Shown here: positions 18,985-44,753 of the stretch, piece by piece
Layout: every line of letters begins with the position of its first letter
Position numbering within the stretch: position 1 is the first letter of the stretch
Assembly: GCA_000002435.2 (NCBI GenBank)
Contig: CM018791.1
Direction: 5' to 3' (one strand)
From: Giardia intestinalis
Taxonomy: Eukaryota
Length of the DNA: 64,000 nt
The notes under the pieces: generated by a model
What the model was told of the DNA's origin: nothing
Databases searched by the model: none
What the model saw: the letters and a program-made list of their open reading frames with translations, nothing else
Translations under genes and position numbers: made by a program

Positions 18985-20421
18985 CTATATTTTTTCAGTT
19001 TTGTCAAAACACGAGAGCTTCCCCACCTGCGGTCTGTAAGTACGGAGCTCCTTACGTAACGTTTGTATTATAACCATGAGCTCATCTATTTCGTCCTGGC
19101 GTTTATCAAGCTCCAGTTTTGCTAAGTTAAGTTCGTGACCTAGTTCGACAACGACGTCAGCATTTGCACCTGCGCCTGCGGCTCCTCTCGAAGTCCTGGC
19201 ATTGCTTGCGTGCTTCTTGCTTAAGTTTTGGGCTGGCAAGATCTGAGAAGAATCCATAGACGATCCTCCTCCAAGTGGTCGATGTGGGAGGTCAGAAGTC
19301 GTAAGAAAGACTGTATCGTAGACGCTTGACGCTGCTATGCGCTCCTTCATTTCTTTGATAAGATTCTCTTTTCGCTCTAGTTCCTTGCGGAGGTCAGATA
19401 CTTCTGCCGTAAGCTGCATAATGCTTACCTGAGCGTCTTGATCTGATACCGTGGCCTCTATCGCCAATTTCATGGTCTCATTGTCAGTAGCCATTCGCGC
19501 CACCTCGTCGTGCAGCACCCTGGCCAGAGACTCCAGCTGAGAGAGCCTGTTCTTAGCCTCTTCGAACTCCAGCTCCTTGTCTAGTGCGGCGATCTTGATC
19601 TCCTCTTGGTCGCGGGAGTCTTTGAAGTCCGAGGTAGAAGTAGAGGGCGCAAAGATTGCATGCTTCTTTCGTAAACTTTCAACGAGTGAAAGAATGGTTC
19701 CTGTTTTCTCGATGGCTGGCTGGAGAAGTGTGTCCGCGAAAGCCGTGTCTGCGAGGGGGTACCCCAGGTCATCGTCCAACTGAATCGATCTGTAGAGGTC
19801 ACAGCCACTGAGGGCACCTATGTCGACGCAATATCGTAAGAGATATGCTGCAATCTGATAGTGACCATATGCAAGGCTAACCATTATGCACGCTTTAGTG
19901 TATGAATCCCGCCAGTTCACCTTGTGCTCGACGATGTACTTCACTGTACATAGAAGGCCGGTGGTGAGTGCATGAAAAAGGACTTTCAAGTGTGCGGTGG
20001 CGAACTTAATGTACACATCTTGCGAAAGAATCGGTATAAAGTAGTTAAACCCCTCTGTAACGTCACGCACAGCTGTTTTGGCGTCTGCCTTCTGCGATTC
20101 TTCAGGCATTTCAAACGGCTGGAGGATGTAGAAGGCTTTAAGGCTATCGTTTTCAATGGCTATCATGCACGCTGTCTGCCGGTTTGCATTAACAATGGTG
20201 GCTTCGTCAGCTGCAAGAATTCCTATCATGCGTAGGTCGTTATTTCTTGTTGCGGCGATTAGGGCAGTGTTCAAGAAGGCATCTTGAACACCCTTAAGCC
20301 GCTGCTTGTGGCATTCTATGAATTCATAGTTACGGGACTCCACGGCCTGGAACCACTCTTCCACCAATGCATCCTTAGAGCTTGACCCGAGGTACGAGTC
20401 CAGGTACTTGAGTGCACCCAT
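18985..20421 (-). CDS. Ankyrin-repeat / coiled-coil protein (Protein 21.1 family)
   Basis: The track ORF 18985..20604 begins with GTG. The likely start is the ATG at 20421 (MGALKYLDSY..), preceded by the strong AT-rich initiator CATTTTAAAATTGAGTTTTATG. An alternative ATG lies at 20481. Ankyrin repeats (LNTALIAATRNNDLRMIGIL, QTACMIAIENDSL) are followed by a long coiled coil in the C-terminal third. Confidence 0.6.
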   Translation of the reverse strand: MGALKYLDSYLGSSSKDALVEEWFQAVESRNYEFIECHKQRLKGVQDAFLNTALIAATRNNDLRMIGILAADEATIVNANRQTACMIAIENDSLKAFYILQPFEMPEESQKADAKTAVRDVTEGFNYFIPILSQDVYIKFATAHLKVLFHALTTGLLCTVKYIVEHKVNWRDSYTKACIMVSLAYGHYQIAAYLLRYCVDIGALSGCDLYRSIQLDDDLGYPLADTAFADTLLQPAIEKTGTILSLVESLRKKHAIFAPSTSTSDFKDSRDQEEIKIAALDKELEFEEAKNRLSQLESLARVLHDEVARMATDNETMKLAIEATVSDQDAQVSIMQLTAEVSDLRKELERKENLIKEMKERIAASSVYDTVFLTTSDLPHRPLGGGSSMDSSQILPAQNLSKKHASNARTSRGAAGAGANADVVVELGHELNLAKLELDKRQDEIDELMVIIQTLRKELRTYRPQVGKLSCFDKTEKI

Positions 20422-20437
20422 AAAACTCAATTTTAAA
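20422..20437. promoter_or_regulatory. 16-bp AT-rich bidirectional initiator between the divergent start codons at 20421 (-) and 20438 (+)
   Basis: The spacer TAAAACTCAATTTTAAA is flanked by an ATG on each strand. Confidence 0.4.
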
Positions 20438-42326: not shown

Positions 42327-42347
42327 AATCTAAAATTTTGACGCGGG
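42327..42347. promoter_or_regulatory. 21-bp shared AT-rich spacer between the divergent start codons 42326 (-) and 42348 (+)
   Basis: The sequence reads CAT-AATCTAAAATTTTGACGCGGG-ATG. Confidence 0.35.
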
Positions 42348-44753
42348 ATGGCACTCAAACGAATCTTATCGGTCAAGAATCTCAAGCCTCTTTGGGAGGA
42401 GACCACCATGGTGCGGCAGTGTACTAACTCTCGAGTGTTATGTTGCTATAAACTCGAAGACAATGAGGTGGACGATGACGAGAAAGCGCACCTCAAAACG
42501 CGTCTAGACCTTCTACTCACCGTCCGGCACCAGGGGATGCGCCTTATTTATGAGCCCACTAGTCCGCCTTATCTGTTCTACGCCTACTGTGGCGGGGGCA
42601 GTCTTCAAGATGCCTTCAAGAGCCATATTCTTCAAGAGACGAAATTCTCGCGTGACGAAATTTTGGACATGTTGTATCAACTTGCAAGCTTGTGCATCTT
42701 TTTGTACGAGTCCCAGACAGGCATACTGGATGAAAATAGCATAATCATAGATCCTCGATGCATATTCTACGATGATTACGGTATGTTGCGGGTGGAGTTC
42801 GGCTGCCCAATGTTCAAGATGGTCCATGTAAAGAAGAAATTTACAAGCACTGCAGATGCTGGAGATGTTGTGATGATGACATCTCTCCCCTTGCCCGATC
42901 TGTTCTACGATATGAGTGGCGCTATCGATCCAGAGTCTATGATGGGTGCCAACATCTTTAACAGAAGGGATAACTTCTCTGACATCGCATCGGATACAAG
43001 TGCATCGGTATCTGAAGTAGCAATGGCAGACTCTTCAACCAATGCTATCACTAACTCAGAGCATAACTCCAGTGTTCAGTCTAACACCCAGTCTAACGCC
43101 AAAGCCTCTAAGTACCTGCATGACCCCCTGACTCCTTACAGGCGGCAACCATTAAACACTGATATCTGTCACCATGATCGGTATGTACCACCAGAATATT
43201 ACAACCAACAGCAGGACACGCCAGAAGGTGTAGTATGGAGTATTGGGCGGCTACTCTATGATGCCTGTCAGCTCACTGGATCAATTCACAAGACTGCTCT
43301 TTCATCACTGGATAAGGAGTACTACACAAAGGGACTGGACAAGGAATACGGAGCAGATTTAGCCATCCTTCTACGTAGCATGATGCAAACTAATTACAGG
43401 AAGAGGCCTACCTTGAGTTACATCTTGAATCTGCCCCTTCTCATGGGTGCTCGAAGGAGCTTTGAGGAGAGACACGGTATTGTGCGAACGGCTGACGGAA
43501 ATACACAACTTATGATCGCAGCTGCTGAGGGGGACATTGCATCCGTCCGGAGATATCTCTACCAGCGATGCTACAGGAATAACCGGGGGGAAACAGCTCT
43601 GATGCTTGCTTTGAAGCACGGACAAGAGGACGCAGGGCTTTTGTTAGCAGATGAAGAGTGTGGATTTGTGGATACAGATGGCAATTTCGGGGCCAAGTAT
43701 GCTCTGTCTAATAGTATAAGTACAGTGTTTCAGAAGCTATCTGTGACAGAGAGGTTCCTCCTAATTAAGTACGGTATTACACACTTGATGATTGCTGCCA
43801 CCAGCGGCGATGTTGCAGGCGTATCCTCCTATCTGGAGGGCAGCGCAGGCTTGGTCCTCAACGGACCAGGAACGACAGCGCTAATGATGGCGGCGTCTGT
43901 TGGTTCGACAGGATGCGTGGAGCAGCTTGCGGCATACGAGGCCCGGATACAGGATGCCAAGGGAATGACCGCCATGATGCACGCTGTACTTCGCGGACAG
44001 ACCGATGTGGTCTGCTTTCTGAGTCAATATGAGGCTAATTATTTGGATAATAACGGTATCAGCGCCCTTATTCATGCTGTCTATGAGCATGAACGGATAA
44101 AAGAAAAGATAAGACAGGAAACTAAAGCCATCCGGCCCGGGAATATAGGCGTGTTGAGTGCCAGGTGTGGGCAGTTGCTTTATATTATTTCGCACCTAGC
44201 ACCGTTGGAGGCGCGTCACAGAACCTCTGGTGGCTACTCTGCACTTATGCTCGCGGCCCAGTATGGAAATATTCGCGCTGTTGAGTCACTTCTTAAGTAC
44301 GAAGGTGGACTGCAAGCAGAGGATGGAACAACTGCCCTTATGCTAGCTATCCGCTATGGGTACACATCTGTTGCTAAAGTTCTGGTACCAATTGAGGCGG
44401 GGTTAACTACCAACGGTAAAAGCACCCAGGGGGACAAGTACACTGCACTTATGGAAGCTGCTGTATGTGGGGATCTGGAAATTGTCAATGCTCTTGCTCC
44501 AAAAGAAGTCCATATCGTACAGACCCCAACAACGAAGTTTCCTGCCGGGAAGACAGCTGCAGATTGGGGCACAGAGTCAGCTGTCTCCGTGGACACAAAA
44601 ACAAAGCAAGACGTTCTCTTTGCTCTGATGATCTACCAAGAGCGTGTAAAACTTGCTGATTCACCCGTCCAAAAGACATTCAAGGAGTTCCTTATGCTGC
44701 TATCTCCACTTATAGTTCTTTTGGTCATGCTTCTACGCAAATATGCAAGATAG
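42348..44753 (+). CDS. NEK-like (predicted inactive) kinase domain fused to a long C-terminal ankyrin-repeat array
   Basis: The N-terminal 330 aa has a kinase-fold layout but lacks HRD and DFG. A region resembling the NEK activation segment (PPEYY, VWSIGRLLYDAC) remains. At least ten ankyrin repeats follow (GNTQLMIAAAEGDIASVRRYL, GETALMLALKHGQEDAGLLL, GTTALMMAASVGSTGCVEQL, GMTAMMHAVLRGQTDVVCFL, GYSALMLAAQYGNIRAVESLL ...). There is a C-terminal hydrophobic tail. Confidence 0.7.
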   Translation: MALKRILSVKNLKPLWEETTMVRQCTNSRVLCCYKLEDNEVDDDEKAHLKTRLDLLLTVRHQGMRLIYEPTSPPYLFYAYCGGGSLQDAFKSHILQETKFSRDEILDMLYQLASLCIFLYESQTGILDENSIIIDPRCIFYDDYGMLRVEFGCPMFKMVHVKKKFTSTADAGDVVMMTSLPLPDLFYDMSGAIDPESMMGANIFNRRDNFSDIASDTSASVSEVAMADSSTNAITNSEHNSSVQSNTQSNAKASKYLHDPLTPYRRQPLNTDICHHDRYVPPEYYNQQQDTPEGVVWSIGRLLYDACQLTGSIHKTALSSLDKEYYTKGLDKEYGADLAILLRSMMQTNYRKRPTLSYILNLPLLMGARRSFEERHGIVRTADGNTQLMIAAAEGDIASVRRYLYQRCYRNNRGETALMLALKHGQEDAGLLLADEECGFVDTDGNFGAKYALSNSISTVFQKLSVTERFLLIKYGITHLMIAATSGDVAGVSSYLEGSAGLVLNGPGTTALMMAASVGSTGCVEQLAAYEARIQDAKGMTAMMHAVLRGQTDVVCFLSQYEANYLDNNGISALIHAVYEHERIKEKIRQETKAIRPGNIGVLSARCGQLLYIISHLAPLEARHRTSGGYSALMLAAQYGNIRAVESLLKYEGGLQAEDGTTALMLAIRYGYTSVAKVLVPIEAGLTTNGKSTQGDKYTALMEAAVCGDLEIVNALAPKEVHIVQTPTTKFPAGKTAADWGTESAVSVDTKTKQDVLFALMIYQERVKLADSPVQKTFKEFLMLLSPLIVLLVMLLRKYAR

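Follow-up and report, generated by a model that had tools for sequence, protein, structure and literature searches.

Conserved head-to-head gene pairs of Giardia duodenalis with start codons 15-21 nt apart and their predicted shared core promoter elements

Four divergent gene pairs in a 64-kb window of Giardia duodenalis WB

The window analysed here, meaning the whole stretch of DNA under study, comprises 64 kb of the Giardia duodenalis WB genome (48% G+C) and is densely filled with long intron-free open reading frames (ORFs) separated by very short gaps. Within it lie three divergent gene pairs whose ATG codons are 15-21 bp apart and a fourth pair at 58 bp, an arrangement that the original prediction had described exactly to the base and that we analysed together with the spacers between the start codons. 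These pairs are real, conserved and ordinary for Giardia, and are new examples of a known arrangement. The gene content is likewise typical for Giardia, including ankyrin-repeat '21.1' proteins, a NEK kinase with ankyrin repeats and an Spc97/98 protein (Pfam). GL50803_006927 of WB is a 100% match to the protein of 1294 amino acids (aa) encoded at 38442-42326 on the minus strand, and the remaining genes were tied to the WB reference by exact-sequence look-up; the gene identities thus match WB, as expected from the earlier assignment of this DNA to Giardia. The genes, start codons and spacers of the four pairs are as follows.

Pair 1, minus gene: 18985-20421 (minus strand), ankyrin repeat protein of the 'Protein 21.1' type, 478 aa (Pfam Ank_2; identical to KAE8303107.1 / XP_001710136.2)
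Pair 1, start codons and spacer 1: CAT at 20419-20421 (minus) and ATG at 20438-20440 (plus); spacer 20422-20437, 16 nt, 88% AT, AAAACTCAATTTTAAA
Pair 1, palindromic initiator-like core: 20430-20439, 10 nt, ATTTTAAAAT, overlapping the plus-strand ATG by 2 nt
Pair 1, plus gene: 20438-22393 (plus strand), ankyrin repeat protein, 651 aa (Pfam Ank families; identical to KAE8303108.1 / XP_001710137.1)
Pair 2, minus gene: 36681-37091 (minus strand), GL50803_6929, hypothetical protein, 136 aa (reference match)
Pair 2, start codons and spacer 2: CAT at 37089-37091 (minus) and ATG at 37107-37109 (plus); spacer 37092-37106, 15 nt, TTTTTTGTCCTCACT
Pair 2, plus gene: 37107-38390 (plus strand), GL50803_6928, hypothetical protein, 427 aa (reference match)
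Pair 3, minus gene: 38442-42326 (minus strand), GL50803_6927, hypothetical protein, 1294 aa (orthologues at 86, 70 and 55% identity)
Pair 3, start codons and spacer 3: CAT at 42324-42326 (minus) and ATG at 42348-42350 (plus); spacer 42327-42347, 21 nt, AATCTAAAATTTTGACGCGGG
Pair 3, plus gene: 42348-44753 (plus strand), 'Kinase, NEK' with ankyrin repeats, 801 aa (Pfam Ank and weak Pkinase; identical to KAE8303119.1 / XP_001710146.1)
Pair 4, minus gene: 22421-24982 (minus strand), Spc97/Spc98 (gamma-tubulin complex) protein, 853 aa (Pfam GCP_N and GCP_C; reference match)
Pair 4, start codons and spacer 4: CAT at 24980-24982 (minus) and ATG at 25041-25043 (plus); spacer 24983-25040, 58 nt
Pair 4, plus gene: 25041-25661 (plus strand), GL50803_14289, thioredoxin-like protein, 206 aa (Pfam, reference match)

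Both start codons of the closest pairs are conserved across lineages

The starts of all eight genes coincide with the current WB reference annotation (478/651, 136/427, 1294/801 and 853/206 aa for pairs 1 to 4), and the same layout appears in isolate P15 (assemblage E), which NCBI annotated independently, with gaps of 16, 21, 20 and 59 nt. Syntenic loci of WB were compared with those of P15, of a B-like lineage and of a more divergent lineage (runs ERR3333383, ERR3333378). The B-like lineage, at 70-84% protein identity, is probably assemblage B, while the divergent lineage has 55% identity for the fastest-evolving protein. This revealed that both ATGs of pairs 1-3 are retained in every lineage, that protein-level conservation starts exactly at the ATG (in three to four lineages), and that in most lineages in-frame stops lie a few codons 5' of the conserved ATGs. 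Across the four lineages of the G. duodenalis complex the gap measures 16-17 nt for pair 1, 15-22 nt for pair 2 (21-22 nt in the three lineages other than WB) and 20-23 nt for pair 3. The head-to-head layout, with two real divergent coding genes on a short common upstream region, therefore holds and is conserved in related genomes. Profile searches for more distant orthologues, for example in G. muris, returned matches from the G. duodenalis complex only.

The six genes of pairs 1-3 are intact in three to four lineages, with identities of 0.74-0.95 at codon positions 1 and 2 versus 0.49-0.73 at position 3; the corresponding values are 0.91-0.95 versus 0.53-0.73 for the minus gene of pair 1 and 0.89-0.94 versus 0.51-0.67 for GL50803_6929. 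Because the first two codon positions are more conserved than the third, we conclude that all six are real genes under purifying selection, and spurious ORFs are ruled out by the same comparison. The N-termini are preserved as protein. In the plus gene of pair 1, MS[TA][AT]RSEWFAAVYSMDH is kept via synonymous changes, with in-frame stops upstream of it in the B-like lineage. GL50803_6929 begins MAT[VA]LRQM[VI]DVLD in four lineages, GL50803_6928 has a conserved MT(LT)LSASPSP, and GL50803_6927 has a conserved MNYLL[FY]P, preceded in three of the four lineages by in-frame stops. Residues 1-20 of the NEK protein, M[ATPS]LKRILSVKNLKPLWEET[TV], are likewise kept in four lineages.

These data also settle the alternative starts. 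Automated callers placed the NEK start at 42408 and that of the 136-aa protein at Met8, and in some lineages preferred yet other starts; as residues 1-20 of the NEK protein are conserved from 42348, the ATG at 42408 is internal, and cross-lineage conservation together with the upstream stops rules out Met8 and 20480/20481 as well. An older RefSeq model of the pair 1 minus gene (XP_001710136.1, 498 aa, start 20481), which overlapped the neighbouring coding sequence by 44 nt, has been replaced by XP_001710136.2 (478 aa, start 20421), and the 498-aa model is further excluded by two stops in the B-like lineage between the equivalents of 20421 and 20481. The CATG at 20479-20482, from which the original prediction had derived alternative ATGs at 20480 (plus) and 20481 (minus), is present in the DNA, but neither ATG is used, given these stops on the minus side and the conservation of the plus N-terminus from 20438. 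With the conserved starts, no overlap of coding sequences exists within any pair. In WB the start of GL50803_6928 is displaced: CTG (Leu3) stands at the ancestral ATG position, and the gene begins instead at a new ATG, in frame and 6 nt upstream (MTLTLSA versus MTLSA); the 15-nt gap of pair 2 is therefore a derived state of WB/assemblage A, the ancestral gap being 21-22 nt. The possibility raised at the outset, that one gene of a pair begins at a downstream ATG, was thus examined by annotation, lineage comparison and selection, and the starts were upheld.

Spacer 1 contains a palindrome that resembles the Giardia initiator on both strands

Giardia promoters span about 50-60 bp and have an AT-rich initiator (Inr) at the transcription start site (TSS), with leaders that are mostly shorter than 20 nt (PMC1885649, PMC3792122); efficient translation reportedly depends on leaders this short (PMC1885649, PMC3792122). 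TSS sequencing (TSS-seq) of WB by Tolba 2013 (PMC3792122) yielded a roughly symmetrical AT-rich consensus from -5 to +5, with ATTTTAAAATG as the top variant. Earlier forms of the Giardia initiator are AATTAAAAA (Holberton & Marshall 1995) and ATTTTAAAAT, found at the gdh start site (Yee 2000).

Candidate initiators were scored using a position weight matrix (PWM), a crude matrix built from the 17 TSS variants published in Tolba 2013 and scanned over 128 kb. Sites of at least 8 bits occur within 40 nt upstream of 9 of 25 gene starts, versus 42 such sites in the 128 kb overall, and on this basis the PWM marks gene starts in the window. An AT-rich initiator 0-20 nt upstream of the ATG was present for three of the six genes of pairs 1-3, namely both genes of pair 1 and the plus gene of pair 3. 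The spacers are conserved in their A/T cores and have drifted elsewhere; for comparison, WB and the two more distant lineages agree at about 50% of adjacent third codon positions.

Spacer 1 holds an exact copy of the 11-mer ATTTTAAAATG, the commonest TSS-consensus variant (Tolba 2013, PMC3792122, Table 3), and the palindrome ATTTTAAAAT occurs once in the window versus 0.08 expected. The PWM scores of pair 1 are 15.8 on the plus strand and 15.7 on the minus strand, with a maximum possible score of 16.9, and two of the three sites scoring at least 14 bits in the 128 kb scanned are this element on its two strands. The predicted TSSs are adjacent, at 20435 on the plus strand with a 3-nt leader and at 20434 on the minus strand with a 13-nt leader, and this back-to-back prediction is retained in four lineages. 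Spacer 1 is identical to that of P15 at 16/16 positions and to that of the B-like lineage at 14/16 positions (binomial P = 0.003), compared with an identity of only about 52% at adjacent third codon positions in the B-like lineage. An origin of pair 1 by recent inverted duplication, which could account for the palindrome, was considered and rejected, as the two ankyrin proteins are similar at the family level only (33% over 83 residues).

Spacers 3 and 4 contain conserved A/T-rich blocks

In spacer 3 the A/T core is conserved and the G/C-rich right half varies freely. The core includes the palindrome AAAATTTT (an A4T4 core) at 42332-42339, which occurs once in the window versus 1.22 expected. 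The predicted TSS for the plus gene is 42332 (PWM 9.7), corresponding to a 16-nt leader.

Spacer 4 is longer, at 58 nt in WB, 59 nt in P15 and 47 nt in the B-like lineage. Its sole block conserved across lineages is a central A-rich TGAAAACTAAAAAG at 25002-25015, about 20-25 nt from each ATG, and AAACTAAAAAG on the plus strand scores 9.6, from which a 31-nt leader is predicted. This suggests that in pair 4 one central A-rich element again serves two genes, with longer leaders.

Spacer 2 is a conserved pyrimidine-rich tract

Spacer 2 has a run of six or seven T residues adjoining the minus-strand ATG (AAAAAAATG on the minus strand) and, beyond it, a tract rich in pyrimidines; both features are conserved. 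The A-run site upstream of GL50803_6929 is weak, with PWM scores of 0.6 to 5.0, and AAAAAAATG is a plausible short A-rich leader for this gene. The original prediction of a single short AT-rich block in each spacer therefore fits pair 1, with its 88% AT, and the core of pair 3, and fails for pair 2, which has a T/C-rich tract without a plus-strand initiator.

On the plus strand, pyrimidines strongly predominate in spacer 2 and over the first ~50 nt of GL50803_6928 (to about 37160), and the pyrimidine bias of the spacer is shared by all four lineages. One public contig (run SRR22286255) has T6 where the window has T7 at the boundary between CAT and the T-run, shortening spacer 2 to 14 nt, and this difference is either an isolate homopolymer polymorphism or an assembly error. 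As to the protein itself, the C-terminus of GL50803_6928 has a hydrophobic segment followed by basic residues and resembles a tail anchor. An MSP/VAP domain was considered for this 427-aa protein and rejected, as the N-terminal ~60 residues give a sub-threshold match to an immunoglobulin (Ig)-like domain (CFAP65 Ig domain, E = 0.14).

The spacers leave no room for a second upstream element

The classical Giardia core promoter has a second AT-rich element about 30 bp upstream (PMC1885649). No such TATA-like element was found for the genes of these pairs, where the position is taken up by the partner's first codons, and the first 20-30 nt of each partner coding sequence are not AT-rich. Nor was excess synonymous conservation detected in codons 2-21, at about 58/100 versus about 0.53 gene-wide in the comparison with the B-like lineage (small numbers). 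With no -30 element available, the pairs would be initiator-only promoters, if functional. Short Logan contigs carrying a 129-aa version of the pair 2 protein were considered as possible transcript ends and set aside, as their sequence is that of the window right through the junction and their ends fall at unrelated positions.

The spacing itself is ordinary for a compact genome

The seven divergent gaps of the window measure 15, 16, 21, 58, 119, 124 and 587 nt, such that three of the seven are 21 nt or shorter. Tandem gaps between genes on the minus strand go down to 19 nt (28073-28091) and 20 nt (36661-36680), and one convergent gap is 4 nt (50101-50104). Distances this short imply that a poly(A) signal and the next initiator, or two 3' ends, overlap with one another or with the adjacent coding sequence. 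In WB the median intergenic size is 81 bp, and in G. muris, with 9.5% of its genes overlapping, it is 37 bp (Xu et al. 2020, PMC7641422). The description of the pairs as an extreme case of promoter sharing is thus overstated: three of seven divergent gaps in the window are this tight, tandem gaps are equally tight, the medians are low in WB and lower still in G. muris, and bidirectional initiation from the same nucleotide has already been shown by TSS-seq (PMC3792122). What exceeds chance is the content of the spacers rather than the spacing, with a unique ATTTTAAAAT in spacer 1 and a unique AAAATTTT in spacer 3.

Two other intervals of the window were recorded. A tRNA-Leu(CAA) lies at 11961-12043 on the minus strand, between convergent genes ending at 11519 and 12120, and is the sole match in Rfam and tRNA scans of the window. 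The interval 44754-46218 (~1.47 kb, AT 0.44) is an unusually long gap with a 239-aa ATG-initiated ORF at 45055-45774 and several overlapping shorter ORFs, and has no long confirmed gene.

Discussion

We favour, with reasonable rather than high confidence, the view that these are ordinary Giardia head-to-head pairs in which compaction has shrunk the common upstream region to about one core promoter element. Since the ATGs are only 15-21 nt apart, the initiation regions of the two partners must occupy the same DNA. The earlier proposal of overlapping or bidirectional initiators stands to this extent, and the pair 1 palindrome fits the consensus on both strands; what it said of the transcripts remains conditional here. 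From the observed gene structures, starts, spacer cores and consensus match we infer the TSSs and the use of one site in both directions. Giardia mRNAs begin inside a short A/T-rich initiator a few nucleotides 5' of the ATG and are translated with leaders of 1-20 nt, and a spacer of 15-21 nt fits only one such element, or two that overlap almost fully. In pair 1, the single palindrome ATTTTAAAAT, a near-perfect initiator in both directions, would launch both mRNAs from adjacent nucleotides, 20435 to the right and 20434 to the left. The conserved AAAATTTT core of pair 3 probably has the same role, with less symmetry. In pair 2, the A-run at the minus-strand ATG probably serves the minus gene, and the plus gene would have to start at a non-consensus site within or beside the conserved pyrimidine tract.

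Several observations weigh against this view. Tolba et al. (PMC3792122) see many 'bidirectional' sites as two adjacent unidirectional initiators. The perfect palindrome of pair 1 is restricted to assemblages A and E; the B-like version, ACTTTAAAAT, is altered in one half, and the scores fall to 5-10 in the other two lineages. The minus site of pair 3 is weak (PWM 4.3, predicted TSS 42331), and a consensus initiator for GL50803_6928 is absent in all lineages, the best score within 30 nt upstream being -13.5 in WB and -4.5 to -12.5 in the others. The PWM itself derives from the 17 published variants only. In a 2025 study of Giardia TATA-binding protein (TBP, gTBP; PMC12209930), AT-rich initiators were uncorrelated with gTBP binding. 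Finally, TSS, rapid amplification of cDNA ends (RACE) and expression values for these genes were not found in the supplements of Tolba 2013 and Franzen 2013 or in full-text literature searches by gene ID, and all start-site positions given here are therefore predictions.

The view that competes best holds that two separate unidirectional initiators abut or overlap, with one half-site per strand and independent transcription, a possibility that we take seriously while considering it rather unlikely. This interpretation is favoured genome-wide by Tolba 2013 (PMC3792122), where no dedicated bidirectional motif was found, and SAGE reported in the literature shows little expression correlation between neighbouring genes in general. 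In pair 1, moreover, the palindrome is broken in the B-like and divergent lineages, yet sites are kept on both strands, as ACTTTAAAATG or TACTTAAAATG on the plus strand and ATTTTAAAGTT or ATTTTAAGTAA on the minus strand. The two 11-mers of pair 1 (20430-20440 and 20429-20439), however, share 10 of 11 bp, so that two complexes could not sit there independently, and the choice between this arrangement and a single shared element is mostly a matter of wording, given that essentially the same DNA is involved.

It is also conceivable, though we think it improbable, that the promoters lie inside the partner coding sequences, in which case the mRNAs would start tens of nucleotides upstream, their 5' ends would overlap in antisense and the spacer would be part of both leaders. 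A classical -30 AT-rich element would indeed fall in the partner coding sequence, TSS-seq placed many TSS clusters at distances of more than 100 nt upstream of ATGs and revealed long leaders for a few genes (PMC3792122), and some short public contigs, of library type not known, span the pair 2 junction unbroken. Against this, the partner coding sequences neither begin AT-rich nor show extra synonymous conservation in codons 2-21, most Giardia leaders are shorter than 20 nt, and conservation at the junctions is concentrated in the A/T core of the spacers. That the layout is an annotation artefact, with one partner starting downstream or being no gene and a normal-sized intergenic region in between, can be rejected with near certainty despite the divergent choices of the automated callers and the older RefSeq model: the stretch of protein from the first ATG to the next one in frame is preserved in three to four lineages, with mostly synonymous changes, conservation stops at the first ATG, the CTG at the ancestral start of GL50803_6928 leaves 37107 as the only nearby start in WB, and all six ORFs are intact and under purifying selection.

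Returning to the shared-element view, its least typical member is the plus gene of pair 2. The sole conserved feature upstream of GL50803_6928 is the polypyrimidine tract, which doubles as the A-run leader of GL50803_6929 on the other strand. According to the 2025 study (PMC12209930), flexible single-stranded CT-rich tracts of about 16-22 nt are preferred to AT-rich initiators by Giardia TBP, and the pyrimidine tract of spacer 2 may be the type of sequence to which the gTBP work points, a lead only. As an unlikely but specific extension, GL50803_6928 might use a promoter without an AT-rich initiator, in which a polypyrimidine tract of 15-22 nt is bound by Giardia TBP in its CT-rich single-strand 'B-mode' and the same tract acts as an A-rich initiator on the other strand. 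If true, spacer 2 and the pair 1 palindrome would be two distinct minimal bidirectional core-promoter architectures in a eukaryote.

Our results leave the picture of Giardia gene expression unchanged, as short shared promoters, very short leaders and bidirectional initiation from the same nucleotide are already documented. The pairs nevertheless provide a conserved natural test case for a minimal promoter, of modest value, in an organism whose basal transcription machinery is poorly defined. If the predicted TSSs are right, the 16-nt spacer of pair 1 would be about the smallest natural eukaryotic DNA to hold all the sequence-specific promoter information for two coding genes. Teodorovic, Walls & Elmendorf 2007 (PMC1885649) found bidirectional transcription to be inherent to Giardia promoters and left undecided whether the Inr alone acts bidirectionally; with the TSSs as predicted, pair 1 would answer their question in favour of a single Giardia initiator working both ways.

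Comparison with known systems

The spacers resemble the AT-rich Inr promoter of Giardia in having a short A/T element with a start site 0-20 nt 5' of the ATG, spacer 1 being an exact match to ATTTTAAAATG and spacer 3 and the central block of spacer 4 moderate ones. Unlike in that promoter, the element here lies between two start codons with no room for the -30 element of a ~60-bp promoter, and the plus gene of pair 2 is without any match.

The divergent genes described by Teodorovic 2007, and the head-to-head ran and phd genes with their shared 153-bp promoter region (cited in PMC1885649), are similarly placed on one short intergenic region with AT-rich elements usable either way. Those cases, however, span 30-308 bp and have two AT-rich elements that swap TATA and Inr roles, whereas the spacers here are 15-21 bp with a single block. 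Closer still are the sites of Tolba 2013 (PMC3792122), where TSS-seq detected bidirectional initiation from a single nucleotide between adjacent genes; the predictions for pair 1 (20434 minus/20435 plus) and, weakly, for pair 3 (42331 minus/42332 plus) are of this kind. The published examples were measured and are not identified as these loci, while ours are predicted from sequence.

The compaction described for Giardia muris and other reduced eukaryotes (PMC7641422) shares with these loci the very short intergenic regions, overlapping genes and signals that overlap coding sequences, but is a genome-wide statistic rather than a promoter mechanism. Head-to-head pairs of yeast and mammals, with TSSs less than 1 kb apart, have in common with the Giardia pairs the divergent orientation and a shared regulatory region. 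They are one to two orders of magnitude larger, their core promoters are separate and lie in a shared nucleosome-free or CpG-island region, and their 5' untranslated regions are long.

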